A DNA stretch of 64,000 nt from Candidatus Komeilibacteria bacterium RIFOXYD1_FULL_37_29 (GTDB taxonomy: Bacteria; Patescibacteriota; Patescibacteriia; UBA1558; GWA2-36-10), in NCBI GenBank assembly GCA_001818495.1, contig MHKS01000005.1:250038-314037 (forward strand), given 5' to 3'. A program made the translations under genes and the position numbers. The first letter of the stretch is position 1, and each line of letters opens with the position of its first letter. This document shows, in pieces, positions 18,840 to 34,903 of this stretch. The notes beneath the pieces were generated by a model. It saw only the letters and a program-made list of their open reading frames with translations. It ran no database searches and was not told the origin of the DNA.

Positions 18840-19406
18840 ATGCTAAAAATTTTCTCAGTTCTATTAGTCGTGTTGTTTGGACTACCTCTCACAGTCCAAG
18901 CCGTTGGTTTGTCTGTTTCGCCGTCTTCTCTGGATATTTTTTATCCGGATGTTTTAACACAAAAAATAAAAATACAAAATATTTCTAGTGAGCCTATAAA
19001 AATCTATGTGCGGGCTGATGATTTTTCAAAAGAGATTAGCTTAGAACCGTCGGAGTTTAATTTGTTACCCCAAGAGATTGCTCTGGTAAATATTTCAGCT
19101 GATTTTAAGCATTTATCAGCCGGTGTTAGAAAAACCAATATTTCTGTTTTGTCCCAAGCTCTAGATAAAAAGAGTTTCAATGCTATCTCTGGTATCAAGG
19201 TGCCAGTCAGTATTTATGTTACGGAAAGTTATTTCAAGTGGTCAGGACCAGCTGTCTTTGTCGTAGTGTTTTTGGGCTTGGGAGTTATTTTTATGCTTTG
19301 GTATTTATTGGTTTATATTTTCCGGCTTAAACCCAAGAAAAATAAATTAGCGGGTTTTAACTTTTTGTTACATCATAAGCGGAAAAAGTGGTATAAATGG
19401 TGGTAA
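18840..19406 (+). CDS. signal-peptide protein with Ig-like/PapD-like body and C-terminal TM anchor (hypothetical)
   Basis: 188 aa. Signal peptide ends ...LPLTVQA. C-terminal TM AVFVVVFLGLGVIFMLWYLLVYIF plus a basic tail. Starts 3 nt after the upstream stop, so probably co-transcribed. Confidence 0.6.
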   Translation: MLKIFSVLLVVLFGLPLTVQAVGLSVSPSSLDIFYPDVLTQKIKIQNISSEPIKIYVRADDFSKEISLEPSEFNLLPQEIALVNISADFKHLSAGVRKTNISVLSQALDKKSFNAISGIKVPVSIYVTESYFKWSGPAVFVVVFLGLGVIFMLWYLLVYIFRLKPKKNKLAGFNFLLHHKRKKWYKWW

Positions 19407-19428: not shown

Positions 19429-19596
19429 GGAGAGGTAGCAGATCCCGCGTAGCGGGACCCCGCTTTGCGGGGGTGGTTTAGAAATAGTAAGTTGATAATT
19501 TCATTTAGTTTTGGAGAGGTGGCAGCTCCCGCGCAGCGGGACCCCGCTTTGCGGGGGTGGTTTAGAAATAGTAAGTTGATAATTTCATTTAGTTTT
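19429..19596. repeat. two tandem 84-bp units, each beginning with the first 8-9 nt of the downstream tRNA-Ser and carrying twin GC-rich hairpins
   Basis: Units 19429-19512 and 19513-19596 (ggagaggt[a/g]gcag[a/c]tcccgcg[t/c]agcgggaccccgctttgcgggggtggtttagaaatagtaagttgataatttcatttagtttt). Three differences between units. Confidence 0.9.
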
Positions 19597-19686
19597 GGAG
19601 AGGTGCTAGAGTGGTTGAATAGGGTGCTCTCGAAAAGCACTAGTCCTGAAAGGGACTCGGGGGTTCAAATCCCTCCCTCTCCGCCA
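19597..19686 (+). tRNA. tRNA-Ser (anticodon CGA), class II with long variable arm, CCA encoded
   Basis: Hand-folded cloverleaf. Acceptor GGAGAGG/CCTCTCC; D stem CTA/TAG; anticodon stem GTGCT/AGCAC with loop CTCGAAA; variable-arm hairpin AGTCC/GGACT; T arm GGGGG-TTCAAAT-CCCTC; discriminator G plus CCA. Confidence 0.9.
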
Positions 19687-20051
19687 TCCTTCGCTAAAGC
19701 TACGGAATGACTAGCCATATGTTATATTATACTTACATTTTATTAAGCTCAAAATCTCATATTTTTTATTTTGGTTCAACGAATAATTTAAAAAATAGAT
19801 TGGAGCTGCATAATAGCGGCAAGGTAACATCAACTAAATCGCATATACCTTGGAAATTAGTTTGGTATTGTGTATTTGAAACGGAAAAACAGGCAAGAGA
19901 TTTTGAGCTTTATTTAAAAACAGGGTCAGGAAAATCTTTTGCTTATAAAAGACTTATTTCCGTGGCTTTAGAGAAGGATTTCAGGGAAGGGAGAATAGGT
20001 AGTCCGAAGCGGAAGCCTTAGCTTTTGCGAAGGATACCTCCCTCTCCGCCA
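19687..20051 (+). mobile_element. 365-bp GIY-YIG gene cassette bounded by 14-bp inverted repeats and a 15-bp duplication of the tRNA-Ser 3' end
   Basis: cctccctctccgcca occurs at 19672-19686 (tRNA 3' end) and again at 20037-20051. IR-L tccttcgctaaagc is at 19687-19700 and IR-R gcttttgcgaagga at 20021-20034 (1 mismatch). Confidence 0.55.
19707..20021 (+). CDS. small GIY-YIG (URI-domain) nuclease family protein
   Basis: YYTYILL...IFYFGSTNNLKNRLELHN...E...K matches the GIY...YIG...R...E layout of COG2827-type proteins. The start may instead be the ATG at 19719. Confidence 0.8.
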   Translation: MTSHMLYYTYILLSSKSHIFYFGSTNNLKNRLELHNSGKVTSTKSHIPWKLVWYCVFETEKQARDFELYLKTGSGKSFAYKRLISVALEKDFREGRIGSPKRKP

Positions 20052-20190: not shown

Positions 20191-22020
20191 ATGTCTAAAA
20201 AAATTGATTACGACAACTGGTCAAAAGATGAGATAATCAAGGAGATTAGGCGAATCAAAGAAACTACATACGGACTTGTGTGGCATCGCGACTTACCTGA
20301 GGAAAAAATTGATATTCTTATAAACCCAGATGCTCGGACTCCAAATGAAATGTTCCCTAACGAAATGGCGGGCAAGCCATTTCCAGTTTTGAAAGAGGCA
20401 AAAACAAAAACAATTGAGACTGATAAAAATAAGCCGACAAATATTTTGATTGAGGGTGATAATTATCATTCTCTTGCCGTTTTGAATTTTACTCATCAAG
20501 AAGCAATTGATTTGATTTACATTGATCCGCCTTACAATACTGGCCACAACGATTTTGTTTACAATGATAAAATTAAAAGCGGTTATGTTGTTAAAGATGA
20601 TCCATTTAGGCATAGTAAATGGATTTCTTTCATGGAAAAAAGGTTAAAACTCGCAAAAAATTTATTGAAATCGTCGGGTGTTATTTTTATTAGTATTGAC
20701 GACAATGAATTTGCTCCATTAAAAATGCTGTGTGACGAGATTTTTGATGAAAGTAATTTCATCTCTATGTTGTCAATTGAAAATAATCCTAAGGGACGGA
20801 AAAACTCCGATTTTATATCTATTTGTAATGATTATTGTCTTATATACGCTAAAGACAAAGGTAAAAGTTATTTTGTTGAAAATATTCCCAAACAAGCTGA
20901 CGACTTAACGATTGATGATAATGGAGACTATGTACACAATAGCGGCAAACGGGTCCTTGTTGGAGAAAATAAATTTAATCCGCTTGTAGAAGATTTTGAA
21001 TCAGCTAAGCATTATAGTGTTTATTACAATCAGACTGATAATAAAATTAAAATAGAGGTGGAAAAAAATATTCACGAGGCAAACAAAGATTTATTAAAAA
21101 ACGGATATAAAAGATACTATTCTTATTTTGGAGACAGATTTGTCTTGAATACTTATACAAAATCAAAAATCATAGAGCTTTTCGAAGATGAGGCTCTCGA
21201 ATTCAAAAATGGGAGTATATATGAAAAAAATTTCAGCACAACAATTAGACTAAAAAGTCTTGTTATCAATAAAAAATATGAGGCAGTAATAAATAATGAA
21301 AAAGCAGAATATCAAATAGATGTTAAAACGACTTCAGCGAAGACTGAATTAAAGGATATTTTCAACACTGACCAAATTCCATTTGATAACCCCAAGAATA
21401 TTGGTTTGATAAAATTATTGGTAACATTATTTGAAAATAAATCAATAACTATTTTAGATTTTTTTGCAGGATCGGGAACGACCGGGCATGCAGTCCTTGG
21501 TCAAAATAAAGAAGATGGAGGAAATCGACAATTTATTCTGTGCACGAATAATGAAAATAATATATGCACTGATATCTGCTATCCCCGTCTTGGAAAAGTT
21601 ATAAAGGGATATAAAAATTCAAGAAATGAAAAAATTGATGGTTTGGGTGGAAACCTGAGATATTTTACTGCTTATGACTTTGTAGAAGCTAAGGAAACAG
21701 ATAGAAACAAAAGAAAACTAGTAAACCAATCAACAGAAATGCTTTGCATTAAGGAAAATGCTTTTGAGCTTGTGCAAGAAGTTGAAGATTATAAAATCTT
21801 CAAGAATCATGATAAATATTTGGGAATTATTTTTCATGAAGATTCTATATCGGACTATGTCAAAGCAATAAAAAAGATAAAAGGACACTTTAATACTTAT
21901 ACATTTTCAATGACGGATGATCCTCACAAAGAGGAATTTACTGATGTTGCGGACAAAGTAACTCTTTGTGCAATTCCAGAAATGATTTTGAAAGTATATC
22001 ATGAGATTTTCAAGGAATAA
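20191..22020 (+). CDS. mod: Type III restriction-modification DNA methyltransferase (Mod, beta-class N6A/N4C)
   Basis: 609 aa. Catalytic IDPPYNTG sits near the N-terminus (nt 20524-20535) and the SAM-binding FFAGSGTTGHAV near the C-terminus, with a variable middle region (TRD). Followed directly by a res-like helicase-nuclease gene. Confidence 0.85.
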   Translation: MSKKIDYDNWSKDEIIKEIRRIKETTYGLVWHRDLPEEKIDILINPDARTPNEMFPNEMAGKPFPVLKEAKTKTIETDKNKPTNILIEGDNYHSLAVLNFTHQEAIDLIYIDPPYNTGHNDFVYNDKIKSGYVVKDDPFRHSKWISFMEKRLKLAKNLLKSSGVIFISIDDNEFAPLKMLCDEIFDESNFISMLSIENNPKGRKNSDFISICNDYCLIYAKDKGKSYFVENIPKQADDLTIDDNGDYVHNSGKRVLVGENKFNPLVEDFESAKHYSVYYNQTDNKIKIEVEKNIHEANKDLLKNGYKRYYSYFGDRFVLNTYTKSKIIELFEDEALEFKNGSIYEKNFSTTIRLKSLVINKKYEAVINNEKAEYQIDVKTTSAKTELKDIFNTDQIPFDNPKNIGLIKLLVTLFENKSITILDFFAGSGTTGHAVLGQNKEDGGNRQFILCTNNENNICTDICYPRLGKVIKGYKNSRNEKIDGLGGNLRYFTAYDFVEAKETDRNKRKLVNQSTEMLCIKENAFELVQEVEDYKIFKNHDKYLGIIFHEDSISDYVKAIKKIKGHFNTYTFSMTDDPHKEEFTDVADKVTLCAIPEMILKVYHEIFKE

Positions 22021-22024
22021 TTAT

Positions 22025-24262
22025 ATGTCATGGATTAATTTTAAAAATTATCAAGAAACTGCAATCGATGAAATACGCGACAAGATTAATGCCCTGCTCA
22101 AAAAAGAGGGTAATAGACTTTGCGTATTCAAAGCTCCGACTGGTTCGGGGAAAACTTTAATGATGGCGGAATGGATGATGAGGTTTTGTGACCCATATTC
22201 GCGAATTGATGGGAAAACTTTTTCTTTTGTATGGATAGCAGTAAATAAATTACATGATCAAAGCCATGACAGTTTAAAAAAGTTTTATGAGCTCAAAGGA
22301 GCGGGGCTTCGTTGTTCATATTTTCACGAACTTGAGGATAGAAAAATAAAACAGAACGAGATTTTATTTTTGAATTGGGCAAGTATCAATAATGAAGACA
22401 AGATTATTGTTCGCGCGAATGAAAGAGATAATAATCTCTCAACAATAATTGATCGGACCAAAGATGCCAGTCGGACAATTATTTTGATTATCGACGAAAG
22501 CCACCATACCGCAAAAAGTAAAAATTCAAAGGCTTTAATAAAAAATATTGACCCTAAAATTACGATCGAGGTTTCTGCTACACCAGAAATTTTTGATTTT
22601 GATGAGCGGGTAACCATTGATATTGAGGATGTACGAAGCGAGGAAATGATAAAGAAAGAAATTGTAGTGAACCCTGGCTTCAAAAATTACACAGTTGATC
22701 CAAAAAAGAACGATCAAACAGCAGACGAATTAATCTTGAAGTCTGCTTTGCAAAAAAGGATTGATTTGCGAAAAAAATTAGAAAAAGATGGTTCAAATGT
22801 CAATCCCTTATTACTTATTCAATTACCGGATACAAAAAAAGGAGTTCCTGATAAAAAAGAGGAGATTGAAACACTTCTTGCTAAATTTGGCTATACAACA
22901 AAAAATGGAAAGTTGGCTGTCTATCTTTCTGAAAAAGATAACAAAATAAATCTTGCTAATATTGAGAAAAATGAAAACGAAGTGGAGGTAATGATGTTCA
23001 AGCAAGCGATTGCACTTGGTTGGGATTGTCCAAGAGCTACAATTCTTGTGCTTTTCCGTCAATGGAAAGATGAAACGATAACATTCTCAATCCAAACATT
23101 GGGAAGAATCATGCGTATGCCTGAGCAAAAACATTATAAAGATCAAGAGTTGAATATTGCTTATCTTTATACTAGTTTACAAGACATTAATACTCGTATT
23201 TTGAAAGGTGCTTCGTCGGGAATAAAATCTCTTACGAGTTATCGCAATGAGAAATATAAAAATATTGACCTAATTTCATATCACTCAAAACGATTCCGTG
23301 AGGAAACTCGTTTGTCTTCTGATTTTGTGAAAATTTTTATCGAAGCCGCTAAAAAAACAAATTTAAAAGATGTTTCGCTAAAAGTCGGGATTGTGAAAAC
23401 AACAATGATCAAAGATGGACGCGTGGAAAATGCGGATAAAGAAATAACAAAGATTGAAAGTGATACTTTTTCTATACCCAAAACAGAGACGGAGCTGCAA
23501 TATACTTTTGATATGTTTGTGCTTGATAATCTTGATCCGTTTGAACATGAAGCCCGTTCTATAAAACGCATAAACGATTCAATTTATACTTTCTTTGGCG
23601 CACGACGCAAAGAAGATGAATGGCCTAAAATACAAGCCACGATACTTTCGTATGAAAAGAATCGCCAAGCTGTAATTGATGCTATTAATCTAGCAAAAGA
23701 TTTATATAAAACCGAAGTTGGAAAAGGCAAAAAAGAACTGATACAAAATGATGAGCCGTGGAATGTGCCAGAAGCTATTAATTTTGATCCGTCATTTGTA
23801 GAGCAAAATTATAAAAAATCTATAATGCAACCATATTACGCTCGTTCTCGGGATGGAGAAAACGGACGATTGTTTGAGGACAGTGAAATTGAAAATGATT
23901 TTATTAAATACCTAGAAAAAGCACAGAAAGTTGTTTGGTGGTTCAGAAATGGGAAACAAGACGGATCATTTTTTGCTGTCCCGCACATTGAACACGGACA
24001 AGAAAAGCCGTTTTATGTTGATTTTATAGTTATGATGAAAAATGGAACTGTTGGGCTTTTTGATACAAAATCAGGATATACTGCCGAACTAGCAAAATCT
24101 CGCTCTGATGGACTTGTAAAATATATTAATGAGCAGAAAAAGAAAAAAATTACTGGCGGAATTGTGAGATACGAAAAGAAAAGTTGGCTATATTTTACTA
24201 ACAAAGAATATAAATATAATCCGAATGATATAAAGGATTGGGAATTTTTGGATTTGAATTAA
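22025..24262 (+). CDS. res: Type III restriction enzyme Res subunit (SF2 helicase + PD-(D/E)xK nuclease)
   Basis: Helicase motifs FKAPTGSGKT, IIDESHH and QTLGRIMR. C-terminal nuclease-like FYVDFIV...GLFDTKSG. The ATG at 22025 has an aagga SD-like element; the alternative start at 22001 overlaps mod. Confidence 0.85.
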   Translation: MSWINFKNYQETAIDEIRDKINALLKKEGNRLCVFKAPTGSGKTLMMAEWMMRFCDPYSRIDGKTFSFVWIAVNKLHDQSHDSLKKFYELKGAGLRCSYFHELEDRKIKQNEILFLNWASINNEDKIIVRANERDNNLSTIIDRTKDASRTIILIIDESHHTAKSKNSKALIKNIDPKITIEVSATPEIFDFDERVTIDIEDVRSEEMIKKEIVVNPGFKNYTVDPKKNDQTADELILKSALQKRIDLRKKLEKDGSNVNPLLLIQLPDTKKGVPDKKEEIETLLAKFGYTTKNGKLAVYLSEKDNKINLANIEKNENEVEVMMFKQAIALGWDCPRATILVLFRQWKDETITFSIQTLGRIMRMPEQKHYKDQELNIAYLYTSLQDINTRILKGASSGIKSLTSYRNEKYKNIDLISYHSKRFREETRLSSDFVKIFIEAAKKTNLKDVSLKVGIVKTTMIKDGRVENADKEITKIESDTFSIPKTETELQYTFDMFVLDNLDPFEHEARSIKRINDSIYTFFGARRKEDEWPKIQATILSYEKNRQAVIDAINLAKDLYKTEVGKGKKELIQNDEPWNVPEAINFDPSFVEQNYKKSIMQPYYARSRDGENGRLFEDSEIENDFIKYLEKAQKVVWWFRNGKQDGSFFAVPHIEHGQEKPFYVDFIVMMKNGTVGLFDTKSGYTAELAKSRSDGLVKYINEQKKKKITGGIVRYEKKSWLYFTNKEYKYNPNDIKDWEFLDLN

Positions 24263-24265
24263 ATT

Positions 24266-25450
24266 ATGGCATTAGAATCAGAAAAATTGGAAGAAAAAAT
24301 AGTTGATAATTATTTTACTGATACTCTATATAGTAGTCGGGAATTTAAGGGTGGAGTAGGTAAATTTTTTACAATAGTATCTCAGGATGAAAATGATATC
24401 CCAAATGTAGTTGATGTTGAGCATTCGTATCCTATACGCAATAAAATAAAGACAACGCTGACATTTATCAAAAAAGAAAACGAAATTACAGCCATTTCCT
24501 TTAAGCGTTTTAAATATTATAAAAAAGAACATTGGGTTGAACAACCAGAAGAACAGATTACTTTTTCATACAGTCTTTTTAAAAAAATTATTGGGTATTT
24601 ACAGTTACTATCAGAATTAAATTTGTCGGCTATTAGTGAGCGAAGAATTGCTTTAGCCGATGACACATTACCGAATATTGACGATGAAACAAAAAAGAAG
24701 ATTAAAACATTGCTTTTACGCAAAGATGGGCAAAAAATTATTGAGGAATTAATAAATAGCGGAATAATTACATCAACCGATATTGTAAATATCGGGTATC
24801 GAAAAAAACAACTTGATGTTTTTGAGAAGCTCCTGACACAACCCGATTATTTTGCAACCTATATAACTGAAAGTAAAATTACAGATACTCGTCATGAGTC
24901 TGTTTGGCAACATTTCTTCCATTCTAATGATTGGATTTTTGGATATGGACTAGATTATCGCTTTCTTGGCATCCTGCAAAAAGAAGCTCATATTTCAAAT
25001 ACAGACGTCGCAGGAAAAGGGGCTGTTATAAATGATTTTCTACTCGGGTGCAATAAATTCACCGTTTTGGTTGAATTAAAAAAACACGACACACCATTAT
25101 TTGGAAAAGACAAAAACCGGTCAAACTCTTGGACACTTTCAGATGATTTAATATCTGGTCTATCTCAAATATTAGAGCAAAAAGCTAGTTGGCAGGTTTC
25201 GGCCGAGACAAATGCAAGTGGAAATTTTGACGATAAGGGTAATTTGATAAAACAAAAAACTATCGATCCAAAAAGTATCTTAGTTATCGGATCAACAAAG
25301 CAATTTGATGGTGATGATAAAGAAAATCAAATTAAAGCAAAAACCTTTGAACTTTTTAGACGAGATTCAAGAAATATAGAAATTCTTACTTATGACGAAC
25401 TGTATGAGAGAGCGAAGTTTATTGTTGAACATAAACAGAAAGACAACTAG
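24266..25450 (+). CDS. DUF4263 / Shedu (SduA)-like PD-(D/E)xK nuclease-domain protein
   Basis: 394 aa. The C-terminal half reads WQHFFHSNDWIFGYGLDY...VINDFLLGC..FTVLVELKKHDTPLF...ILVIG...FELFRRDSRNIEILTYDELYERAKF, the layout I associate with DUF4263. Starts 4 nt after the res stop. Confidence 0.6.
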   Translation: MALESEKLEEKIVDNYFTDTLYSSREFKGGVGKFFTIVSQDENDIPNVVDVEHSYPIRNKIKTTLTFIKKENEITAISFKRFKYYKKEHWVEQPEEQITFSYSLFKKIIGYLQLLSELNLSAISERRIALADDTLPNIDDETKKKIKTLLLRKDGQKIIEELINSGIITSTDIVNIGYRKKQLDVFEKLLTQPDYFATYITESKITDTRHESVWQHFFHSNDWIFGYGLDYRFLGILQKEAHISNTDVAGKGAVINDFLLGCNKFTVLVELKKHDTPLFGKDKNRSNSWTLSDDLISGLSQILEQKASWQVSAETNASGNFDDKGNLIKQKTIDPKSILVIGSTKQFDGDDKENQIKAKTFELFRRDSRNIEILTYDELYERAKFIVEHKQKDN

Positions 25451-26416: not shown

Positions 26417-26666
26417 TTTTCACTGTCTTTTCAGGCAGTTTTTTGGTATAATCAAAGCATTAATTAATAAAAATATTATGATTGACGAAGAAATAAAGCA
26501 AATTATTCAGGAAAATAAGGACACTTTGGCTAATATTGATAAAAGGATTGGTCGGATTGAGAAAAATTTTATTTGGAGTTCAATTTTTGGTTTTATAAAG
26601 ATTGTTATTATTGTAGCACCGATTGTTTTTGGTATTATTTATTTTACGCCATTTTTGAAAGATTTA
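26417..26666 (+). repeat. left copy of a ~250-bp direct repeat (promoter + 5' part of a small TM-protein gene)
   Basis: Aligns with 33400-33649 at a fixed offset of 6,983 nt. I count about 9 mismatches, and the first ~104 nt are identical. Contains tggtataat (26444-26452). Confidence 0.9.
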
Positions 26667-26690
26667 AATAAATTGGGTATTATTACATAA
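26478..26690 (+). CDS. small TM protein, truncated paralog of the 33461-33811 gene
   Basis: 70 aa. MIDEEIKQIIQENK..NIDKRIGRIEKNFIWSSIFGF.KIVII is nearly identical to the N-terminus of the downstream paralog and diverges after FTPFLKD. Confidence 0.6.
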   Translation: MIDEEIKQIIQENKDTLANIDKRIGRIEKNFIWSSIFGFIKIVIIVAPIVFGIIYFTPFLKDLNKLGIIT

Positions 26691-26707
26691 TTAAGAAATG
26701 GTAGTAT

Positions 26708-28426
26708 ATGAAAAAGTCAAAAGTCATATTAGGGATTACTGCCTTTAATCATGATTCTTCGGCGTGCTTAATTTATCAAGGTAGAGTAATTGCATTTTGT
26801 GAGGAGGAAAGATTCAATGGCATAAAACATACCGGAGATTTTCCGATAAAATCAATTTTATTTTGTTTAGAAAAAGCTGGTTTGTCATTAAATGATGTGA
26901 CTGATGTAGCTTTTTATTTTAATATTAAAAAATGTTTATTGAGTTATATAAAGAACAATAATCCACTCTATTATATTATTCATCCATCTTTATTTAAGAG
27001 GAAAAGATTTTATTATGAAATTATTTGGTTATTTAGTTTTATAAACAAAATTAATTCAATTAAAAAACTCCTTAATAATTATAAGATAAAGATTACTTAT
27101 GTAGATCATCATATGGCGCACGCTTGGTATGGGTATTTTTCTTCAAATTTTAAAAATTGCACGGTAGTTTCTAATGACAGCGTAGGCGAGAGTGTGAGTA
27201 GTTTAGCCGTAAAGATACAGAGAGAAGATAAAAAAATTATTTTTGGTAAGACATTCAGTCAAACAGACCCTCACTCTATTGGGTATTTGTATGGTGCTAT
27301 AACTGAATTTTTAGGATTCAAAAGAGGTCAAGACGAAGGAAAGGTTATGGCTATGGCGGCTTTAGGGAAAGATAAATATGTAAAATATTTTGATGACTTG
27401 ATTAGATATTTACCTAATGGGGAATTTAGAATAAGTAAGGAGTTGATTTCCTTACGTAATTTTCAGCCAAAATCACAAAGATTAAGCAATGATTTTTTAA
27501 AAAAATTTGGATATTATCGTCAACCCCAAGAACCATTTATCCAAAAGCATTATGATATTGCTTATGCAATACAAGGGGTAACGGAAAAAATTTTATATCA
27601 CCAATTAAAATATATTAATGATGATAATATAGTCATTACTGGTGGTATTGCTCAAAATAGTGTAGCCAACGGGAAACTCAACAATTTTTTTTATAAAAGA
27701 AATATATTTATTCCTCCGATTCCTAATGATGCCGGGTGTGGTATTGGCGCGGCGCTTTCTTTATATTATAAGTATTATGAAGATTTACCAGAGTTTGTGG
27801 ATACTGCGTTTTTAGGCCCAGAATTTTCTGATCATAAAATCATTAAAACATTAGAAAATAATAAAATAAATTTTAAAATTATAAAAAATCAGACGGAATT
27901 CATTATTAATGAGCTTTTGAAAAATAAGATTATCGCTATATATAGAAATGAGATGGAGTGTGGTCCTAGGGCATTAGGTAATAGGAGTATAATAGCCAAT
28001 CCAATTGATCCGGCGATGAAGAATTACATCAATGAAAAAATAAAACACCGTGAATTTTTTCAGCCATACGGCGGGTTGATTATTGATAAAAATGTTAAAG
28101 AAGTATTTGATTATAAGAATAAAAATATTTCCGGACCATATATGTCTTTTGTTTATCCAATTAAAGATAAATGGTTAAAAATGTTTCCATCTTTGGTTCA
28201 TTTTGATAAAACTTCTAGAATTCAAATAATAAAGAAGGAACAAAATTTTTTATATAGTCTCTTGGAAGAATTTTATAAAAAAACAGGTGTCCCCGTAATT
28301 ATAAATACTTCCCTTAATTTAAGAGGGCAGCCTATGGCAAGAAGCCATCAAGATGCTTTAAACACATTTTATAATTCGGGGATTCATTATATTTTATTTA
28401 ATAACAGTATTCTAGTTTCAAAATGA
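26708..28426 (+). CDS. NodU/CmcH/TobZ-family O-carbamoyltransferase
   Basis: 572 aa. N-terminal ILGITAFNHDSSACLIYQGRVIAFCEEERFNGIKH, VDHHMAHAWYGYF, and C-terminal domain ECGPRALGNRSIIANP. Confidence 0.85.
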   Translation: MKKSKVILGITAFNHDSSACLIYQGRVIAFCEEERFNGIKHTGDFPIKSILFCLEKAGLSLNDVTDVAFYFNIKKCLLSYIKNNNPLYYIIHPSLFKRKRFYYEIIWLFSFINKINSIKKLLNNYKIKITYVDHHMAHAWYGYFSSNFKNCTVVSNDSVGESVSSLAVKIQREDKKIIFGKTFSQTDPHSIGYLYGAITEFLGFKRGQDEGKVMAMAALGKDKYVKYFDDLIRYLPNGEFRISKELISLRNFQPKSQRLSNDFLKKFGYYRQPQEPFIQKHYDIAYAIQGVTEKILYHQLKYINDDNIVITGGIAQNSVANGKLNNFFYKRNIFIPPIPNDAGCGIGAALSLYYKYYEDLPEFVDTAFLGPEFSDHKIIKTLENNKINFKIIKNQTEFIINELLKNKIIAIYRNEMECGPRALGNRSIIANPIDPAMKNYINEKIKHREFFQPYGGLIIDKNVKEVFDYKNKNISGPYMSFVYPIKDKWLKMFPSLVHFDKTSRIQIIKKEQNFLYSLLEEFYKKTGVPVIINTSLNLRGQPMARSHQDALNTFYNSGIHYILFNNSILVSK

Positions 28427-29247
28427 TTAAAGATTTTCAAAAGATAGAGTTTTTAAAATCACTTTACAGTGATAAAGACTTAATATCGTTTCGTGGCAAT
28501 TTTTTAAAAAATAATTCCAACCGTAAATTCTCATTAAGATCTTTTATTATTAAACTTTTGCCGATGCTAAAGGATAAAAAAATATTAGACATTGGTTGCG
28601 GAGACGGGTCATTCCTCAATAAATTACATACGGTATATCCTCAAAATAAATATTTTGGTTTGGATGTAGTAGATAATGCTAAATGCCATAAATTGAAATT
28701 TCTTGACTACAAAATTTATGATGGTAAATCCAGGGTTTATTATACGGAAAAATTTGATGTGATATTTTGTATGCACACTGTTTATCATATCGAAGATTTA
28801 TTCACTTTTTTTACAACGATGAAAGACTATTTAAAGCCCCATGGCATTATTATCATTACTACGAAGTCTAAATTGACTTTTCCTAAAATAGAATCAATCT
28901 TTTTAAAGATTGTCGGTAAGCTTGACTTAAAAAAATATTTAAAAATTAGCAAACACAGAGAGGAATCAAAATTTTGTTTGGAGAACGGATTAAACAGATT
29001 AAAAAAACACTTCGCTAGGCGGTCATTTAGTATAAATGAGTATGTTTTAGAAACGCAGGTTTTTGTTAATGACAAAAAAGATCTTTTGAAATATGTTTTT
29101 TCTACAAATAGATATAATATTTTGAAAGATACTTTAAACAAAAAAATTGTTGAAAAATATACAAAACTTTGGTTTGAAGAAATTGATAAAGATCAGATAT
29201 TCATTGATAAATATACGGAGGCTGTTTATTTAATAAAAAAATTATGA
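28423..29247 (+). CDS. class I SAM-dependent methyltransferase
   Basis: 274 aa with ILDIGCGDGSF motif I, YFGLDVV and FDVIFCMHTVYHIEDL. ATGA overlap with the carbamoyltransferase stop. Confidence 0.75.
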   Translation: MIKDFQKIEFLKSLYSDKDLISFRGNFLKNNSNRKFSLRSFIIKLLPMLKDKKILDIGCGDGSFLNKLHTVYPQNKYFGLDVVDNAKCHKLKFLDYKIYDGKSRVYYTEKFDVIFCMHTVYHIEDLFTFFTTMKDYLKPHGIIIITTKSKLTFPKIESIFLKIVGKLDLKKYLKISKHREESKFCLENGLNRLKKHFARRSFSINEYVLETQVFVNDKKDLLKYVFSTNRYNILKDTLNKKIVEKYTKLWFEEIDKDQIFIDKYTEAVYLIKKL

Positions 29248-30311
29248 AAATAGGTTATAGTTGCTGGGGATTTTTGGGTAACGGAATAAAGGATACACCG
29301 GATGGCGGGAGGAGTCACCGGTTGACTTTATTGAAAGAATTAATCCGTCAAGGAGTTGAAATAGTAATGTTGCAAAAGAATAGAGACCTCATTGAAGGCA
29401 ATCAAAGTTTTTCACGAAAGAATTTAATATTTAGTGGTGAGTTACCGGAAATAGATGCTCTATTTGTAGAATATAGATGGAAGATAGTAGGAAGGAATTA
29501 TAAGGTGAGAAAAAATAATCCAGCCTATACTCCGGATTTCGATAGACAGAGTGAATTAATTAATTTTTATAATAATAGAAATATTCCTATTATTATTTGG
29601 GATAAAGATCAGAAACTTGGTAAGAATGAAATAAAAGGCATTAAAAATTTGATTGTATTTGAACCTGCTTTAAAGCCAAGGTTTAATAGAAAAAGTTTAT
29701 TGTTTCCGATGGACAATCATAGAACAAAAATTGTCCTCAAATTGATAGGTAAGTATAAAAAAAATATTAAGAGCTCCAAGTTGTGTTACATTGGAAATCA
29801 ATATGAGAGAGATGGTAGTTTTAAAGAGTTTATTAATAAGCCAGCCAGTATGCTCGATACCAAAACACCAGTATTTGGTAATTGGAACAAATATCCAGAA
29901 AAGTATAAGCAAAATATGCAAAAATTTTCCAATGTTGAATTTAAAGGTAGGGTGCAGTTTAATAAAGTTAATAATATTTATAAAAAATCTTTTTCTACAG
30001 TTCTTATCGCGCCACGGAGATATTATATCACGGGTCATTTTACACAAAGATTATTTGAGGCAATGTGGGGCTTATGCATTCCTTTTACCCCGCAGCAATA
30101 TCATGGATGGCAGGGTTTAATAATAAAAGATTTTATAATTAGATCTGGCAAAGATTTAATAAATAAGATAAAAAAATTAGAAACAACGCCCGATTCAGAT
30201 ATAAGGAGAATGTTTGATAGACAGTTTGAGAAACTTAATTTATTTAATGCCAGTAAACAAGCCAGTATAATTATAAACGAAATCAATAATCATAATGGTA
30301 GACTCGGGTAA
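29244..30311 (+). CDS. hypothetical protein, possibly GT-B-fold (CgeB/DUF3880-like) glycosyltransferase
   Basis: 355 aa. The C-terminal half (YIGNQYERD...VEFKGRV...YKKSFSTVLIAPRRYYITGHFTQRLFEAMWGLCIPF) resembles the donor-binding half of GT-B enzymes. The assignment is by eye only. ATGA overlap with the upstream gene. Confidence 0.3.
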   Translation: MKIGYSCWGFLGNGIKDTPDGGRSHRLTLLKELIRQGVEIVMLQKNRDLIEGNQSFSRKNLIFSGELPEIDALFVEYRWKIVGRNYKVRKNNPAYTPDFDRQSELINFYNNRNIPIIIWDKDQKLGKNEIKGIKNLIVFEPALKPRFNRKSLLFPMDNHRTKIVLKLIGKYKKNIKSSKLCYIGNQYERDGSFKEFINKPASMLDTKTPVFGNWNKYPEKYKQNMQKFSNVEFKGRVQFNKVNNIYKKSFSTVLIAPRRYYITGHFTQRLFEAMWGLCIPFTPQQYHGWQGLIIKDFIIRSGKDLINKIKKLETTPDSDIRRMFDRQFEKLNLFNASKQASIIINEINNHNGRLG

Positions 30312-31074
30312 TAAAAATAAATCTTTAGAAATTGTAATTGATTCTAAACACTATATTAAAAAAAGATATTCTGATATCCAACGTTTTTTTTGTGAATTAA
30401 AATATCTTAAATATTTTAAAGATGAAGATATCAATGTTCCTTTTATATATAAATTTGATAAAATCCAAAAAACAATAATAATAGATAAAATAAAGGGGAA
30501 AATCGGCGATTCATTAAATAATAGAGACACAAAACTATGCATTGATGTGCTTGTCAAAATAATTTTTATTTTTGGTTTGGAAAAGAAAAATAATAATGAA
30601 ATTGATAGGTATATTTCAAAAGTCAGGTCAAATATAATATGGTGGTGTGAAAATAATAATTATATAGTAGAAAAAGAAAAATTAAATATTTTACTTCAAA
30701 AGTTAAGAAAAGTGTGTTATATATCTTTATTCAAAGATGCCAAACCATCTAATTGGATTTTTCAAAAAGATAAAATATACGCAATAGACTTTGATTATGT
30801 AAAAAAATCATTTTTTTTAGCAGATTTAGCACAACTTTTAAGTTATATTTCATTAAGGAAAAAAATAAGTTATATTTTCTTTGTAAATTATTATCTAAAG
30901 CAAATATTCCCAAAAATGAAGGATTATGATAAATTTTATATACCTTTTAAATTAGCGCTTGTTAATTCCAACATTGCTTCTGAACTTCACAGAGAGAATT
31001 TAGGAGCCTATGTAAAAAGGGGTTTTGCCAAACAAAACAGGTTTATTTTGAGTGAATTTAAGATAATATTATAA
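30295..31074 (+). CDS. protein-kinase-like fold kinase (APH/Bud32/LPS-kinase-like)
   Basis: 259 aa. Catalytic-loop-like FKDAKPSNWIF followed by IYAIDFDYV (DFG-equivalent). Overlaps the upstream gene by 17 nt. Confidence 0.5.
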   Translation: MVDSGNKNKSLEIVIDSKHYIKKRYSDIQRFFCELKYLKYFKDEDINVPFIYKFDKIQKTIIIDKIKGKIGDSLNNRDTKLCIDVLVKIIFIFGLEKKNNNEIDRYISKVRSNIIWWCENNNYIVEKEKLNILLQKLRKVCYISLFKDAKPSNWIFQKDKIYAIDFDYVKKSFFLADLAQLLSYISLRKKISYIFFVNYYLKQIFPKMKDYDKFYIPFKLALVNSNIASELHRENLGAYVKRGFAKQNRFILSEFKIIL

Positions 31075-31955
31075 TGTCAATATCAATAACCGCCAAATCA
31101 GCTAATGAAGCATTCATTAAAATAGCTGATAAATTGTATAATAATCCGGAATATGTTTCTAGTCCTCGAAGCTGGGAAACAAGGGAGTTATTAGGGGCTT
31201 TTATTGTTATCAACAATCCCTATGATCGTTTTATAAATAATGTTCATAGGAAGATTTCTTTAAAGTATCTTATTGGTGAATGGTTATGGTATGAGCGAGG
31301 ATCCAATTCTTTAAATGAAATTAATTATTATGCAAAATTTTGGAGCAGTATTTCGGATGATAAAATAACTGCCAATTCAGCTTATGGTCATAGAATTTTA
31401 GGGATCAATAAGTTCGTGATTATTAATCAATGGAAGTGGGCCAAACGGCAAATAATAAAAGATAAGGAAACAAGGAGAGCCATCATTTTTATTGGATTGC
31501 CAAGTGATATGAAAAACGAAACGAAAGATTTTCCTTGCACTATGTCACTCCAGTTTTTAATAAGAAATAATGAGTTACATTTAATTTGCAATATGAGGAG
31601 CAATGATTTAGTATTGGGTTTTACTTATGATGTAGCTACCTTTACTTTATATCAAGAAAAAATGTTGTTGGAGTTGAAAAAATATTATCCAAAATTAAAG
31701 ATAGGTAAATATTTTCATATGGTAGGCAGTTTACACGTATATAAGAAAAACTATGAGATGATAAAAAAAGTGATAAATGATCAGGACAATAATTTGAAAA
31801 TTACCATGCCTCGCATGGGTGATTTAAAAGAAATAAAAAAACTCCAGTATAACGAGAGTATTATAAGAGAAAATAAAAATAAAAAGTTTAAAAAAATTGA
31901 AGATAGATTCTGTATCTGGTGTCAGAATATTTTATTAAATAAAATTAAATACTAA
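31074..31955 (+). CDS. thymidylate synthase (ThyA) superfamily enzyme with Asp at the Asn177-equivalent position; candidate deoxycytidylate/cytidylate C5-hydroxymethylase or methylase
   Basis: Hand alignment to E. coli ThyA. GEWLWYERG ~ ELLWFLQG; TRRAIIF ~ SRRIIVSAW; FPCTMSLQF ~ APCHAFFQF (Cys codon 31536-31538); MRSNDLVLGFTYDVATF ~ QRSCDVFLGLPFNIASY (Asp codon 31629-31631 replaces Asn177); GSLHVY ~ GDTHLY. TAATG overlap with the upstream gene. Confidence 0.7.
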   Translation: MSISITAKSANEAFIKIADKLYNNPEYVSSPRSWETRELLGAFIVINNPYDRFINNVHRKISLKYLIGEWLWYERGSNSLNEINYYAKFWSSISDDKITANSAYGHRILGINKFVIINQWKWAKRQIIKDKETRRAIIFIGLPSDMKNETKDFPCTMSLQFLIRNNELHLICNMRSNDLVLGFTYDVATFTLYQEKMLLELKKYYPKLKIGKYFHMVGSLHVYKKNYEMIKKVINDQDNNLKITMPRMGDLKEIKKLQYNESIIRENKNKKFKKIEDRFCIWCQNILLNKIKY

Positions 31956-31956
31956 A

Positions 31957-32628
31957 ATGAAAGGCATAATTATAGACGGAGTTGTTTCTTCTGGTAAAAC
32001 GTCTATCTTAAAACATCTTCATCGTCTGATTTCAGAACAAAACCCTACTTCAACCAAGTTTTTTATTAGTGAACACTATACTGAGAGAATGTTGGAGCAT
32101 TTGAAAGATAAAGGTGAATTAGACGGTAGCCATATAAAAGCCCACGTTGATCAGTTAATCCATACTTTAGCTTCTTTTCAGTCTATGTTGGATAATTCTA
32201 AGTTTCGTGATAACCCGAAAGGAGCAGATTTGTTTGTTACTTTAGAAAGATTTATTCTAACCCATTTGTCCTCAGTGGACATAGGAGATAAATATAGTCT
32301 TGATGAAGTCAAAGCTCATTTTGAAATTTTAAACAAGCTAGGAGTAAAACAAGTAGCTTTAATAATTCCCGAATCAAGACTAAAAGAAAATATCATGTCG
32401 ACTCTGCAATATCGAAATGACGCCTGGTTGGATTATTTGTATTCTAGGGGTGGAGAAAAAGAAATTATAGAATATTATATCAATTGGCAGAATAATTTTT
32501 TAGAGTATATCAACAAATTTAAAGATATAATAGATACCTTAGTCATCGAAGTAAAAGATCAAGACTATCTTCAATATAGTAATACTATTTTTAATAGTTG
32601 TATTAAATCAGATATTCTCTCAAAATAA
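31957..32628 (+). CDS. P-loop kinase, (deoxy)nucleoside/nucleotide-kinase-like
   Basis: 223 aa. Walker A IIIDGVVSSGKTS at the N-terminus and a possible ERS-like LERF motif. Starts 2 nt after the ThyA-like stop. Confidence 0.4.
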   Translation: MKGIIIDGVVSSGKTSILKHLHRLISEQNPTSTKFFISEHYTERMLEHLKDKGELDGSHIKAHVDQLIHTLASFQSMLDNSKFRDNPKGADLFVTLERFILTHLSSVDIGDKYSLDEVKAHFEILNKLGVKQVALIIPESRLKENIMSTLQYRNDAWLDYLYSRGGEKEIIEYYINWQNNFLEYINKFKDIIDTLVIEVKDQDYLQYSNTIFNSCIKSDILSK

Positions 32629-33114
32629 ATGTTTTTTAATTTTATGTTTTTTATACTTTACCCCGGCTAAATCAAAGAGTTTTTTAGAAACGATAAAATT
32701 ATTCGCATCTTTGTCTGATCTATCATCTTGATAGATTATATTTTTTATGCCGCTTTGGATAATAATTTTTGCACACTCATTGCAGGGGAAGAGTAAACAG
32801 TAAAGTTTTGCATTTTCGGCTGATTGATTAGTATTTAAAATGGCATTTACTTCAGCGTGAACAACATACGGATATTTTGTATTTAAGATATTTTTTTTGT
32901 TATGCCCGTAATTATTACTCCAAGAAAAATGCCCTTCCTTAATACCTCTAGGCCAACCGTTGTAGCCAACTCCTAAAACAACATTATTTTTATCAACCAC
33001 GACAGCTCCGGTTTGAGTTGATGGGTCTTTTGATCTCTGAGCTATAACTTGAGCCATTAGCATAAATGTTTCATCCCACGATAAATAGTTTTTTCTAGCT
33101 TTTATATTATCCAT
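32620..33114 (-). CDS. dCMP deaminase (ComEB/Cd family)
   Basis: 164 aa. Zinc motifs VHAEVNAI and PCNECAKII, with N-terminal SWDETFMLMAQVIAQRSKDPSTQTGAVVV. Convergent with the operon, with a 9-nt 3' overlap. Confidence 0.9.
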   Translation of the reverse strand: MDNIKARKNYLSWDETFMLMAQVIAQRSKDPSTQTGAVVVDKNNVVLGVGYNGWPRGIKEGHFSWSNNYGHNKKNILNTKYPYVVHAEVNAILNTNQSAENAKLYCLLFPCNECAKIIIQSGIKNIIYQDDRSDKDANNFIVSKKLFDLAGVKYKKHKIKKHLF

Positions 33115-33399
33115 TTTTGTAGGTTAGATCACTTTATAAGAATATAATACCCCATACTTATCTTAAAAGTCAAAGATTATAACTATTATTTTTATGTCGA
33201 AACTAGTCAACAAACTAAAACCGAGAAAAATTTTTGGTTGTCAGAAAGAAGCTTGAATAATATAGGCAAGAAAGAGAGTTTTATTATAATGCTCGGAGGA
33301 GATATGTGAAATATTATGAACCAAACATTTAATTCGCAATGATTACTGGTTGTTCTATATAAAAAGATAGAGCCGTTAGTGTTAGTTGACGATTTCTGT

Positions 33400-33649
33400 T
33401 TTTCACTGTCTTTTCAGGCAGTTTTTTGGTATAATCAAAGCATTAATTAATAAAAATATTATGATTGACGAAGAAATAAAGCAAATTATTCAGGAAAATA
33501 AGGAAACTTTAGCTAATATTGATAAAAGAATTGGTCGGATTGAGAAAAATTTTATTTGGAGTTCAATTTTTGGTTTTGTAAAGATTGTTATTATTTTAGG
33601 GCCGATTATTTTTGGTATTATTTATTTTACGCCATTTTTAAAAGATTTT
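33400..33649 (+). repeat. right copy of the ~250-bp direct repeat
   Basis: See the left copy. Contains tggtataat at 33427-33435 and the ATG at 33461. Confidence 0.9.
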
Positions 33650-33811
33650 ATTCGTATTTATGAACCATTTTTCAAGAATCTACCGATTACTTTACAAAAT
33701 TTAAACAATCCTTCTTCGGACTCAAATATTCCAACTGGCGCTCAGGCTGGGTTAGAAAATTTTTGTGATCCACAAGTTCGCGAGGCCATGATCGATAGTC
33801 TTTGTAAATAA
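33461..33811 (+). CDS. small TM protein (full-length paralog), hypothetical
   Basis: ATG at 33461 corresponds to the start of the left-copy ORF and sits downstream of the repeated promoter. The ORF-track start at 33386 would place the promoter inside the coding region. Confidence 0.6.
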   Translation: MIDEEIKQIIQENKETLANIDKRIGRIEKNFIWSSIFGFVKIVIILGPIIFGIIYFTPFLKDFIRIYEPFFKNLPITLQNLNNPSSDSNIPTGAQAGLENFCDPQVREAMIDSLCK

Positions 33812-33817
33812 AAAATC

Positions 33818-34903
33818 ATGGAAGAATTACGCAGTAAAATAAAAACTTTATTTTTGGAGATTTCTAAATCTTTGAAAATTTTTGATTTAGAAAATAAAAA
33901 AAGTAAATTGGGAGAACTCAAAAACGAAATGACCAGACCAGACTTTTGGAATGACCAAGAACGAGCCAAAAATATTAGCTGGCAAGCCAGTGTTTTGGAG
34001 AAGGGTATCAATGACTGGCAGAATATAGCCAAGGAAGTAGCCGAGCTTAATGATTTGTCTCAAGATCAGCAGGCTGAGGAGTTATTAAAAGAATTGGAAA
34101 ATAAGTATAATATTCTTTATAATCAATTTACATCTTTGGCCGTTCAACTTTTTCTGCAAGGAAAATATGACGAGCTAGCCGCTATCATCACTGTCAATGC
34201 TGGAGCCGGAGGAGTAGATGCTCAAGACTGGGCGCAAATGATCGAAAGAATGTATTTACGACTAGCTGAGAAAAATAATTGGCAGGTCCATTTGATGTCG
34301 CGTTCAGTCGGCTCGGAAGCAGGGATTAAAAGTGTGATTTTTAAAGTCCAAGGTCCTTATGCTTATGGCTATTTAAAAAACGAAGCTGGAGTACATCGTT
34401 TGGTCCGTTTGTCGCCTTATGATGCTGATCACGCCCGGCATACTTCTTTTGCTATGTTAGAAGTTTTGCCGGAGATAATCAATCCGGAGATAGATATCAA
34501 AGAAGAAGATATCAAAGTTGATACTTTTCGGTCTTCTGGTAATGGCGGTCAGTCGGTCAATACTACTGATTCGGCTGTGCGGGTGACACATCTACCAACG
34601 GGAATTTCCGCTGGCTGTCAAAACGAGAGATCACAGATACAAAATAAAAAGCAAGCTCTCAGTCATCTCTACGCCAAATTGCAAAAATATTATGAGGCCG
34701 AGCAAGAAGACGAAAGAAAAATGATAAAGGGAGAATATACCGAAGCGGCTTGGGGCAATCAAATTCGCTCTTATGTTATTCATCCGTATAAAATGGTCAA
34801 AGACCATCGGACAAATTTTCAGTCCAAAGATCCAGACAGGGTCTTAGGTGGAGATTTAATGCCATTTATTAAGGCCAATTTGGAAAAAAATGTAGTGGCC
34901 TAA
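33818..34903 (+). CDS. prfB: peptide chain release factor 2, encoded without the programmed +1 frameshift
   Basis: 361 aa. HRLVRLSPYDADHARHTSFAMLEVLPE (RF2 SPF-region, here SPY) and SGNGGQSVNTTDSAVRVTHLPTG (GGQ). The N-terminus IFDLENKKSKLGELKNEMTRPDFWND is contiguous in one frame. Confidence 0.9.
   Translation: MEELRSKIKTLFLEISKSLKIFDLENKKSKLGELKNEMTRPDFWNDQERAKNISWQASVLEKGINDWQNIAKEVAELNDLSQDQQAEELLKELENKYNILYNQFTSLAVQLFLQGKYDELAAIITVNAGAGGVDAQDWAQMIERMYLRLAEKNNWQVHLMSRSVGSEAGIKSVIFKVQGPYAYGYLKNEAGVHRLVRLSPYDADHARHTSFAMLEVLPEIINPEIDIKEEDIKVDTFRSSGNGGQSVNTTDSAVRVTHLPTGISAGCQNERSQIQNKKQALSHLYAKLQKYYEAEQEDERKMIKGEYTEAAWGNQIRSYVIHPYKMVKDHRTNFQSKDPDRVLGGDLMPFIKANLEKNVVA

Follow-up and report, generated by a model that had tools for sequence, protein, structure and literature searches.

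A repeat-flanked, AT-rich seven-gene cassette with a predicted cytosine-hypermodification gene set on a Komeilibacteria chromosome

Phages are known to hypermodify pyrimidines by routes whose first enzyme is a thymidylate-synthase-like hydroxymethylase; to our knowledge, this has been shown for no cellular chromosome. In the T-even pathway to 5-hydroxymethylcytosine (5hmC), a deoxycytidine monophosphate (dCMP) 5-hydroxymethylase (gp42) is combined with the deoxynucleoside monophosphate kinase gp1, the dCMP deaminase cd, and alpha- and beta-glucosyltransferases. The same gene-set logic is recognizable in a cassette of seven genes from a member of the candidate phyla radiation (CPR), Candidatus Komeilibacteria bacterium RIFOXYD1_FULL_37_29, which is the subject of this work. 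Within the 64,000 nt of contig MHKS01000005.1 that were analysed (positions 250,038 to 314,037 of the forward strand; hereafter, the window), these genes form an insert of 6,734 bp (26666–33399) bracketed by the two copies of a direct repeat (26417–26665 and 33400–33648). Like the T-even pathway, the window combines a thymidylate-synthase homolog carrying a signature for cytosine and deoxy substrates with a kinase-like P-loop protein, a dCMP deaminase, and a glycosyltransferase of the GT-B fold. It differs in that the genes lie on a cellular chromosome, in the absence of a dCTPase, a dUTPase, and a polymerase, in the addition of carbamoyl-, methyl-, and kinase-type tailoring genes, and in low identity to the T4 enzymes (16% for the glycosyltransferase).

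In phages, a 5hmC O-carbamoyltransferase has been demonstrated biochemically (Yang et al, 2021, PMC8670742); according to the same study, carbamoyltransferase and thymidylate-synthase homolog occur together only on modified phage contigs, often accompanied by a dCMP deaminase. The window likewise combines a two-domain carbamoyltransferase of the NodU/TobZ type with a thymidylate-synthase homolog and a dCMP deaminase, but on a bacterial chromosome, with 22% identity to the characterised 5hmC enzyme (BLASTP E 7e-13), and together with a glycosyltransferase, a methyltransferase, and a kinase. With these three additional enzymes present, carbamoylation could take place on a sugar instead of the hydroxymethyl group. 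Among solved structures, the nearest homolog to the window's hydroxymethylase is MilA, which belongs to the MilA/BcmA type of pathway leading to mildiomycin and bacimethrin. The bacimethrin biosynthetic cluster contains a methyltransferase and a kinase, as does the cassette. Distinct from these pathways, however, the ribo-specifying Lys133 and Ala176 are replaced by Arg and Ser in the window enzyme, and domain searches recovered no N-glycosidase of the MilB/BcmB type from the cassette.

As to the way in which the cassette may have entered the chromosome, the nearest precedents are Campbell-type integration and homology-facilitated illegitimate recombination in naturally transformable bacteria. 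Shared with these are target-derived repeats (one truncated and one with the intact gene), one homologous side and one microhomology joint, and the lack of an element-encoded recombinase; the competence gene for ComEC is located 3 kb downstream of the insert. The island differs from them in that neither a circle nor a donor was observed and in the mosaic distribution of mismatches between its repeat copies. Moreover, homology-facilitated illegitimate recombination usually leads to replacement or deletion, not to duplication. A repeat-flanked island is, in itself, an ordinary kind of thing. What is new here are recombinase-free junctions resolved to the base pair, together with a phage-style gene set predicted for cytosine hypermodification in cellular genomes of several phyla. 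Full-text literature searches returned no description of the cassette in CPR bacteria or actinomycetes; the survey of base-modification systems by Iyer et al (2013), which lay outside these searches, may mention related clusters.

The island and its direct repeat

A preliminary description of the window had reported repeats of ~250 bp at a constant offset of 6,983 nt, with ~9 mismatches and with the first ~104 nt identical. A repeat search recovered one direct repeat of 249 nt with sharp boundaries on both sides, at precisely this offset and 96% identical, and placed nine mismatches at repeat positions 106, 112, 130, 179, 197, 201, 202, 209, and 241. Thus, the copies do not differ in their first 105 nt (0/105), as opposed to 9/144 thereafter; if mismatches were placed uniformly, the probability of all nine lying beyond position 105 would be ~0.007. 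Each copy begins with a terminator-like hairpin (ACTGTCT-TTTC-AGGCAGT plus a T-run; plus strand, 26422–26439, with a second copy at 33405–33422), which is conserved in the relative L007 (loci fetched for comparison carry the prefix L) and which, in the left repeat, overlaps an extended −10 element (TGGTATAAT, 26444–26452). Apart from the hairpin and the promoter, the left copy (26417–26665, plus strand) contains codons 1–63 of a small membrane-protein gene. The right copy (33400–33648, plus strand) runs unbroken into the intact version of this gene (33461–33811, plus strand), which encodes a native, lineage-specific, single-pass membrane protein of 116 aa and stops 7 nt before prfB (33818–34903). 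That the right copy leads into a full-length 116-aa gene close to prfB had been stated in the preliminary description. Its further claim, that the left copy is a truncated, 70-aa version whose promoter is placed to drive the operon, also agrees with the annotation: in a chimeric open reading frame (ORF; 26478–26690, plus strand), ~60 small-gene codons continue in-frame with the last ~12 codons of a HAD phosphatase gene, and the stop of this 70-aa ORF lies 17 nt before the first cassette gene. As the repeat sequence is homologous to L007, L009, and L010, it is native to the small-gene locus. The adjoining prfB is one uninterrupted 361-aa ORF in which the usual +1 frameshift site is not evident; in L001, it was called as two pieces, at the point where L001 and the window differ.

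The GC content of the insert is 0.285, compared with 0.380 for the window outside 19.6–33.8 kb. Since 6.7-kb windows outside the island had a mean GC content of 0.381 (standard deviation 0.017, minimum 0.351), the insert lies ~5.6 standard deviations lower; most of the shift is found at codon positions 1 and 2, and the difference in GC3 is smaller. That the segment is AT-richer than its surroundings had been noticed from the letters, and the computed composition is indeed unequal. The cassette is also AT-richer than its flanks in 8/8 other comparable loci. The same gene set was found on many metagenomic contigs and in CPR genomes (50–87% protein identity), in such different contexts as a two-component system with DNA methyltransferases (L110), GAPDH (L111), and an IS30-like gene (L114). 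Genomes with an uninterrupted small gene, which the preliminary description had suggested looking for, do exist: L007/L008, L009, and L010 (only 52–75% amino-acid identity) have a single small gene and no cassette upstream, so that the duplicated arrangement is not conserved among these relatives. Their upstream neighbors differ as well: L007 has a glycosyltransferase gene plus two small ORFs and L009 an unrelated gene, and in L010, a homolog of window 18840–19406 lies 90 nt upstream of the small gene. The latter genome is without the whole interval corresponding to 19.4–33.4 kb. The deviant GC content, the same gene set at unrelated loci, and single-copy relatives without the cassette argue for a foreign origin of the insert. 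We consider 26666–33399 to be a horizontally acquired seven-gene operon, a 5′-truncated copy of a cassette conserved in CPR bacteria; our confidence in this explanation, taken as a whole with the mechanism and the function proposed below, is slightly better than even.

Gene content and predicted product

Six of the seven genes are co-directional (plus strand), with overlapping or abutting ends, and the dCMP deaminase gene lies on the opposite strand. The first (26708–28426) encodes an O-carbamoyltransferase of the NodU/CmcH/TobZ type (572 aa; Pfam Carbam_trans_N/C, phrog_1601) and the second (28423–29247) a class I S-adenosylmethionine-dependent methyltransferase (274 aa; domain searches). The third product (29244–30311; 355 aa) had no direct match in PDB, Pfam, PHROG, or phage tblastn searches. 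It was assigned as a CgeB/Glyco_trans_1_2-like GT-B glycosyltransferase from homologs annotated PF13524 and from an AlphaFold 2 model (predicted local distance difference test score [pLDDT] 94.5), for which T4 beta-glucosyltransferase (1qkj) was the best solved match in Foldseek (E 5.8e-12, TM-score 0.62). It is followed by a Bud32/APH-like kinase-fold protein (30295–31074; 259 aa; domain searches), which in some relatives (L014) forms one protein with the glycosyltransferase, by the thymidylate-synthase homolog with the residue signature of dCMP 5-hydroxymethylases (31074–31955; Pfam PF00303), and by the P-loop protein (31957–32628; 223 aa), which is weakly thymidylate/nucleoside-kinase-like. 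The dCMP deaminase gene (32620–33114, minus strand; 164 aa) is inverted in the window and in L011 only, being co-directional in L013, L014, and L110. Between its start and the right repeat, there is a spacer of 285 nt (33115–33399) with promoter-like sites for the deaminase, to which none of the loci fetched from outside this strain has a homologous sequence.

The thymidylate-synthase homolog matched the CMP hydroxymethylase MilA (1.5e-30), T4 dCMP hydroxymethylase (1e-17), and ThyA (1e-13). It contains the catalytic Cys, an Asp (cytosine type) at the position of ThyA N177, and Arg and Ser (deoxy type) at the positions of MilA K133 and A176, as assigned by published rules for the residues that determine deoxy and cytosine specificity (PMC5175136). 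A further Asp is present three residues ahead of the Cys, as in MilA, and D169 of ThyA is kept. The signature R-D-C-S-D-D was found in 14/14 CPR-type homologs and also in nine phage homologs encoded within ~9 kb of a glycosyltransferase homolog. Fold, catalytic Cys, Asp, Arg, and Ser are those of a dCMP 5-hydroxymethylase of the T4 gp42 type. The predicted product is 5-hydroxymethyl-dCMP (hm-dCMP) rather than dTMP, 5-methyl-dCMP, or 5-hydroxy-dCMP, for which the retained D169 and the Asp ahead of the Cys are indirect indications. Two other identities were considered and rejected. D169N is the mark of 5-hydroxy-dCMP synthases (PMC13326640), and D169 is retained here. A plain thymidylate-synthesis module (ThyA, Tmk, and ComEB) is contradicted by NCBIfam ThyA scores of 22–63 bits, with cut-offs of 108–576, by the Asp at the N177 position, and by hydroxymethylases being the best matches. 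About half of the actinomycete hydroxymethylases discussed below have Gly, not Ser, at the position of MilA A176.

The P-loop protein, which is proposed to be an hm-dCMP kinase, had no direct match in PDB, Pfam, and PHROG searches; its family profile yielded weak matches to thymidylate kinases, and a single-sequence structure prediction was unusable (pLDDT 39). In four homologs (P0059, P0063, P0071, and P0098), a thymidylate-synthase homolog and a thymidylate-kinase domain are combined in a fusion of ~500 aa, which links the hydroxymethylase step to the kinase step. Taken together, the gene set suggests a pathway in which dCMP would be converted to hm-dCMP by the thymidylate-synthase homolog and phosphorylated by the P-loop kinase. 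The hydroxymethyl group might then be glycosylated by the T4 beta-glucosyltransferase-like enzyme and the product further tailored by the carbamoyltransferase, the methyltransferase, and the kinase, with the deaminase presumably balancing dCMP and dUMP.

Whether such a modification would finally be carried by DNA or by a free nucleotide or nucleoside bears on the meaning of the whole cassette. DNA appears somewhat the likelier carrier, with roughly an even chance, because the hydroxymethylase is of the deoxy type, because the glycosyltransferase has the fold concerned and its family is linked to thymidylate-synthase homologs in phages, because carbamoyltransferase and thymidylate-synthase homolog co-occur on modified phage contigs and 5hmC O-carbamoylation is proven (PMC8670742), and because type III restriction-modification and Shedu genes adjoin the cassette. 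The linkage in phages was apparent on IMG/VR contigs, where a thymidylate-synthase homolog was found within ~9 kb of the glycosyltransferase homolog in 9/12 loci and within ~1.7 kb in 6/12. Several results weigh against DNA as the carrier, or against the proposed function in general. Domain searches identified neither a dCTPase nor a dUTPase in the cassette. No defence model of PADLOC was matched by the carbamoyltransferase, the glycosyltransferase, the kinase, the thymidylate-synthase homolog, or the P-loop protein; there were domain-level matches only, for the methyltransferase (mad2) and the deaminase (dCTPase). Identity of the carbamoyltransferase to the characterised 5hmC enzyme is as low as 22%. 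The similarity of the glycosyltransferase to T4 beta-glucosyltransferase (TM-score 0.62, 16% identity) is nearly reached by many other GT-B enzymes. Finally, O-carbamoyl-, methyl-, and sulfotransferases as well as APH-like kinases are typical of small-molecule tailoring.

Some of these observations also feed a competing explanation, to which we assign a chance somewhat short of even, namely that the cassette makes a free nucleoside or nucleotide and leaves the DNA unmodified; the product might be a defence nucleotide or else, as with mildiomycin or bacimethrin, an antimetabolite or toxin. Natural-product-type tailoring enzymes (carbamoyl- and methyltransferase, APH-like kinase, and an additional sulfotransferase in relatives such as L018 and L114) would fit this explanation, as would the lack of a dCTPase in the cassette and the nature of the hosts, which are symbionts, predators, and antibiotic producers. 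It is also favored by the actinomycete version. In more than 70 representatives of actinomycete species (L022–L095), the genes for hydroxymethylase, carbamoyltransferase, and glycosyltransferase follow one another directly in an unvarying order, and in Streptomyces L096 (4794–18325), this trio is part of a cluster of ~14 genes with HAD, methyltransferase, APH, His_Phos, epimerase, NUDIX, and cytidylyltransferase genes. With its nucleoside diphosphate (NDP)-sugar-type genes, it has the look of a natural-product cluster, which speaks against a DNA modification. NDP-sugar genes, however, also occur in DNA-glycosylation clusters of phages (PMC13326640). What further disfavors a free metabolite is that the hydroxymethylase has the deoxy-type Arg and Ser instead of the Lys and Ala of MilA and BcmA, that an N-glycosidase of the MilB/BcmB type is absent, and that the glycosyltransferase family is found near thymidylate-synthase homologs in phages. 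If a free nucleotide is nevertheless the product, the cassette would represent an uncharacterised, widely distributed pathway for a deoxycytidine-derived metabolite. In L096, a GmrSD-type nuclease gene lies ~6 kb upstream of the cluster.

Returning to DNA as the carrier, a far-reaching version may be formulated, which we regard as rather improbable when all its parts are taken jointly. CPR bacteria, and possibly several hundred other species including many actinomycetes, would use a phage-like pathway to introduce glycosylated, carbamoylated 5hmC into their own chromosomes, where it would serve as a self-mark in addition to restriction and Shedu systems, and the operon would spread without a recombinase by homology plus microhomology, each time duplicating a promoter of the host. 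If host DNA were indeed modified, bacterial immunity would gain a new kind of self-marking, and this in organisms that make their living from scavenged foreign DNA.

Junctions and routes of insertion

The left join of repeat and cassette could be resolved to the base pair by comparison with other copies of the cassette. The first gene of the fuller ones encodes a phosphatase, of the HAD type in L014 and L110 and of the His_Phos type in L111. A 3′ remnant of this ancestral first gene, a HAD phosphatase, is left in the window at 26651–26690 (plus strand) and encodes FLKDLNKLGIIT before the stop. Nucleotide identity to the cassette of L011 (84%) sets in at the same position, 26651, which is ~15 nt before the left repeat ends. 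The final residues of the 70-aa ORF, FLKDLNKLGIIT, and the short leader of L011, KLRMQTLLFEDYAKFLDDLDRLKIIK, both followed by a stop, align with the HAD C-termini of L014 (...TLLFVNYDNFLKDLNRLNVI, stop) and L110, which means that the first gene of the cassette has been cut down, to 12 codons in the window and to ~27 in L011. The first ~14 nt of the remnant (TTTTTnAAAGATTT; FLKD) are a microhomology in common with the native small gene, TTTTTAAAAGATTT being present in both the native gene and the HAD 3′ end precisely where the repeat ends; at this position, the native small protein reads ...TPFLKDFIRIY. These alignments show that small-gene codon ~60 is joined to the HAD 3′ end illegitimately, by way of the ~14-nt microhomology, and not in a site-specific manner.

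The other boundary is of a different kind. Homology to L007 starts at 33405 (26422 in the left copy), 5 nt inside the left edge of the repeat, and the genes upstream differ in every relative; this synteny comparison places the left edge (26417 and 33400) at the border of the lineage's conserved small-gene/prfB block. At the right junction, no microhomology is visible. One boundary at a homology limit and the other at a microhomology fit DNA of a related donor that was integrated by host recombination. Our reading, therefore, is an integration that needed no recombinase of its own, with one side joined by homologous and the other by illegitimate recombination. A related donor would have carried the cassette already directly upstream of the small gene; by the simplest path, a donor fragment would have closed on itself, or been bridged, at the FLKD microhomology to yield a circle of 6,983 bp, which would then have recombined with the recipient in a single crossover through the 249-bp homology, using host recombination functions. 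The expected, Campbell-type outcome would be repeat–cassette–repeat, the left promoter driving the 70-aa chimera and the operon, and the right copy keeping the small gene together with its promoter. What is found agrees with such an outcome: bracketing repeats derived from the target, one copy truncated and the other with the intact gene, and an empty target in diverged relatives. The junctions would then exemplify how an operon can enter a minimal genome unaided by mobile-element machinery, acquire a promoter in doing so, and leave the target gene intact.

Other types of elements were tried and rejected. No recombinase, integrase, or transposase domain was detected in the ORFs of 26.4–33.4 kb or of the neighboring 20–26 kb, and the repeat search revealed no inverted repeats that pair the cassette ends. 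Lacking a tyrosine or serine recombinase in or beside it, the island does not qualify as integrase-mediated or as a prophage. A transposon or insertion sequence is contradicted by the lack of both a transposase and terminal inverted repeats and by a duplication of 249 bp, compared with the 2–14 bp to be expected. Integration by an integrase at tRNA-Ser does not apply either, given that the 18-nt repeat of the tRNA 3′ end encloses only a 365-nt GIY-YIG unit and has no copy near 26.4 or 33.4 kb.

Several findings count against the crossover just outlined. None of the loci examined proved to be a donor, with the cassette in a native position upstream of the small gene, and the metagenome scans described below yielded neither a circle junction nor an empty site, although these are weak negatives. 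A simple crossover of diverged copies does not explain the distribution of mismatches (0/105 versus 9/144); this mosaic pattern requires later gene conversion or a crossover biased to the identical block. With 171/188 and 168/188 identities, the two repeat copies show no clear difference in origin when compared with L009. A different lineage origin of the two copies, which 91% versus 82% identity had seemed to indicate, was accordingly dropped: these values had been computed over unequal lengths, and the same 188 columns give 171 versus 168.

The main alternative to a crossover, which we consider possible though clearly the less probable, is a duplication-capture in a single step. The nascent strand would leave the small gene at codon ~60, switch at the microhomology onto a linear cassette, and return 249 nt upstream, in the manner of microhomology-mediated break-induced replication or of fork stalling and template switching (MMBIR/FoSTeS); in a variant included in this estimate, an unequal join of sister chromosomes would trap the fragment. 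Neither a circular intermediate nor a related donor would be necessary. The microhomology at the left junction and the lack of a recombinase are in keeping with this route, and the genome contains other local duplications with promoters, an example being the tandem repeat of 84 nt that precedes tRNA-Ser. A hairpin at the repeat edge, here and in L111, could act as a pause site, and the repeats flanking the cassette vary in length and sequence between loci. On the other hand, a left edge within 5 nt of the synteny boundary would be left unexplained unless selection or hairpin-directed switching is invoked, and the right junction shows no microhomology, the donor sequence beyond it not being known. 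The preliminary description had named both a Campbell-type integration of a circular element and a duplication-capture event as possible origins of the repeats. Both are compatible with the junctions, and nothing marks the island as a self-mobile circular element.

Comparison with other loci suggests that a duplicative route is usual for the cassette, that is, a regular route rather than an accident. In L111, a target-derived direct repeat of 59 nt (96.6%; 1709–1766 and 9025–9083) with a hairpin and a T-run brackets a full cassette beside GAPDH, in L011, a 40-nt target-derived repeat over a different promoter surrounds the cassette, and in L020 (Amoebophilaceae), two 83-nt copies of the mutL 3′ end (5035–5117 and 11062–11144), 6 kb apart, enclose a degraded version. 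L018 and L116 are weaker cases, and no direct repeats flank the cassette at L110, L114, and L017. In L111, the thymidylate-synthase homolog is split into ORFs of 193 and 97 aa. The insert of L020 contains a truncated ATP/ADP translocase, an ABC transporter, an ATP-grasp fragment, and a methyltransferase and a glycosyltransferase of the cassette type.

It might also be supposed that the arrangement is ancestral in the lineage and that the relatives have lost the cassette by recombination between the repeats, which would restore a clean single gene. The cassette was present in every same-species contig long enough to show it (L001–L006), and the 3.6% divergence between the repeat copies implies some age. 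Against this explanation stand the truncation of the cassette's first gene exactly at the junction and its strongly deviant GC content, the location of the cassette at different loci in other CPR genomes, and three relatives with three different upstream neighbors, none of them the cassette; we regard it as very unlikely. The preliminary description had proposed a search for excised circles or a collapsed single-copy allele. In contigs of Joint Genome Institute (JGI) metagenomes, there were no matches to either the empty-site allele (left flank, ~252 nt, and right-specific sequence) or the junction of an excised circle, which is a weak negative because exact 22-mers were required, and a same-species empty site was found neither there nor among the same-species contigs. 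In view of this result and of the cassette in every adequate same-species contig, the sampled populations appear to carry the insertion as a fixed and stable feature. An assembly or binning artefact, finally, can practically be dismissed: although repeats can mis-join metagenome assemblies and many homologous cassettes lie on contigs of 6.2–7.8 kb, the same structure is reproduced at 99.9–100% identity by L001, an independent assembly of another sample that covers both junctions, and by L003, which begins within the left repeat copy with its copy-specific variants and crosses the left repeat–cassette join and the right junction, the two contigs deriving from different samples and assemblers.

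Related contigs and the neighborhood of the insert

The short contigs with cassette homologs (those of P0006–P0033) are, with 6.2–7.8 kb, about as long as the cassette. This suggests that assemblies break at the cassette borders, for which flanking repeats or the coexistence of several contexts in one sample could be responsible; in the four cassette-sized contigs of relatives that were examined, no terminal overlaps were present. In L114, an IS30-like transposase gene (967–1962; HTH_38 plus rve) is located directly upstream of a cassette variant in which the sulfotransferase gene is present and an AP_endonuc_2 (TIM-barrel) gene replaces that of the deaminase.

In the window, a defence island (20191–25450; GC content 0.31–0.34) lies directly upstream of the cassette and comprises a type III methyltransferase and restriction subunit as well as Shedu SduA (PADLOC E 1.7e-154). 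Further upstream, the tRNA-Ser(cga) gene, which was the sole Rfam match within 19–35 kb, is directly preceded by the 84-nt tandem duplication (19429–19596; 96% identical). Each unit starts with the first 8 nt of the tRNA (GGAGAGGT) and contains GC-rich hairpins and the promoter-like TTGATAAT. The last 18 nt of the tRNA (19669–19686) are repeated at 20034–20051 (17/18 identical), and the two copies enclose a 100-aa ORF for a GIY-YIG nuclease (19719–20021; Pfam 1.3e-16), which looks like a mini-insertion at the tRNA 3′ end. Close to the beginning of the window, 77–10813 is occupied by a single ORF of 3,578 aa.

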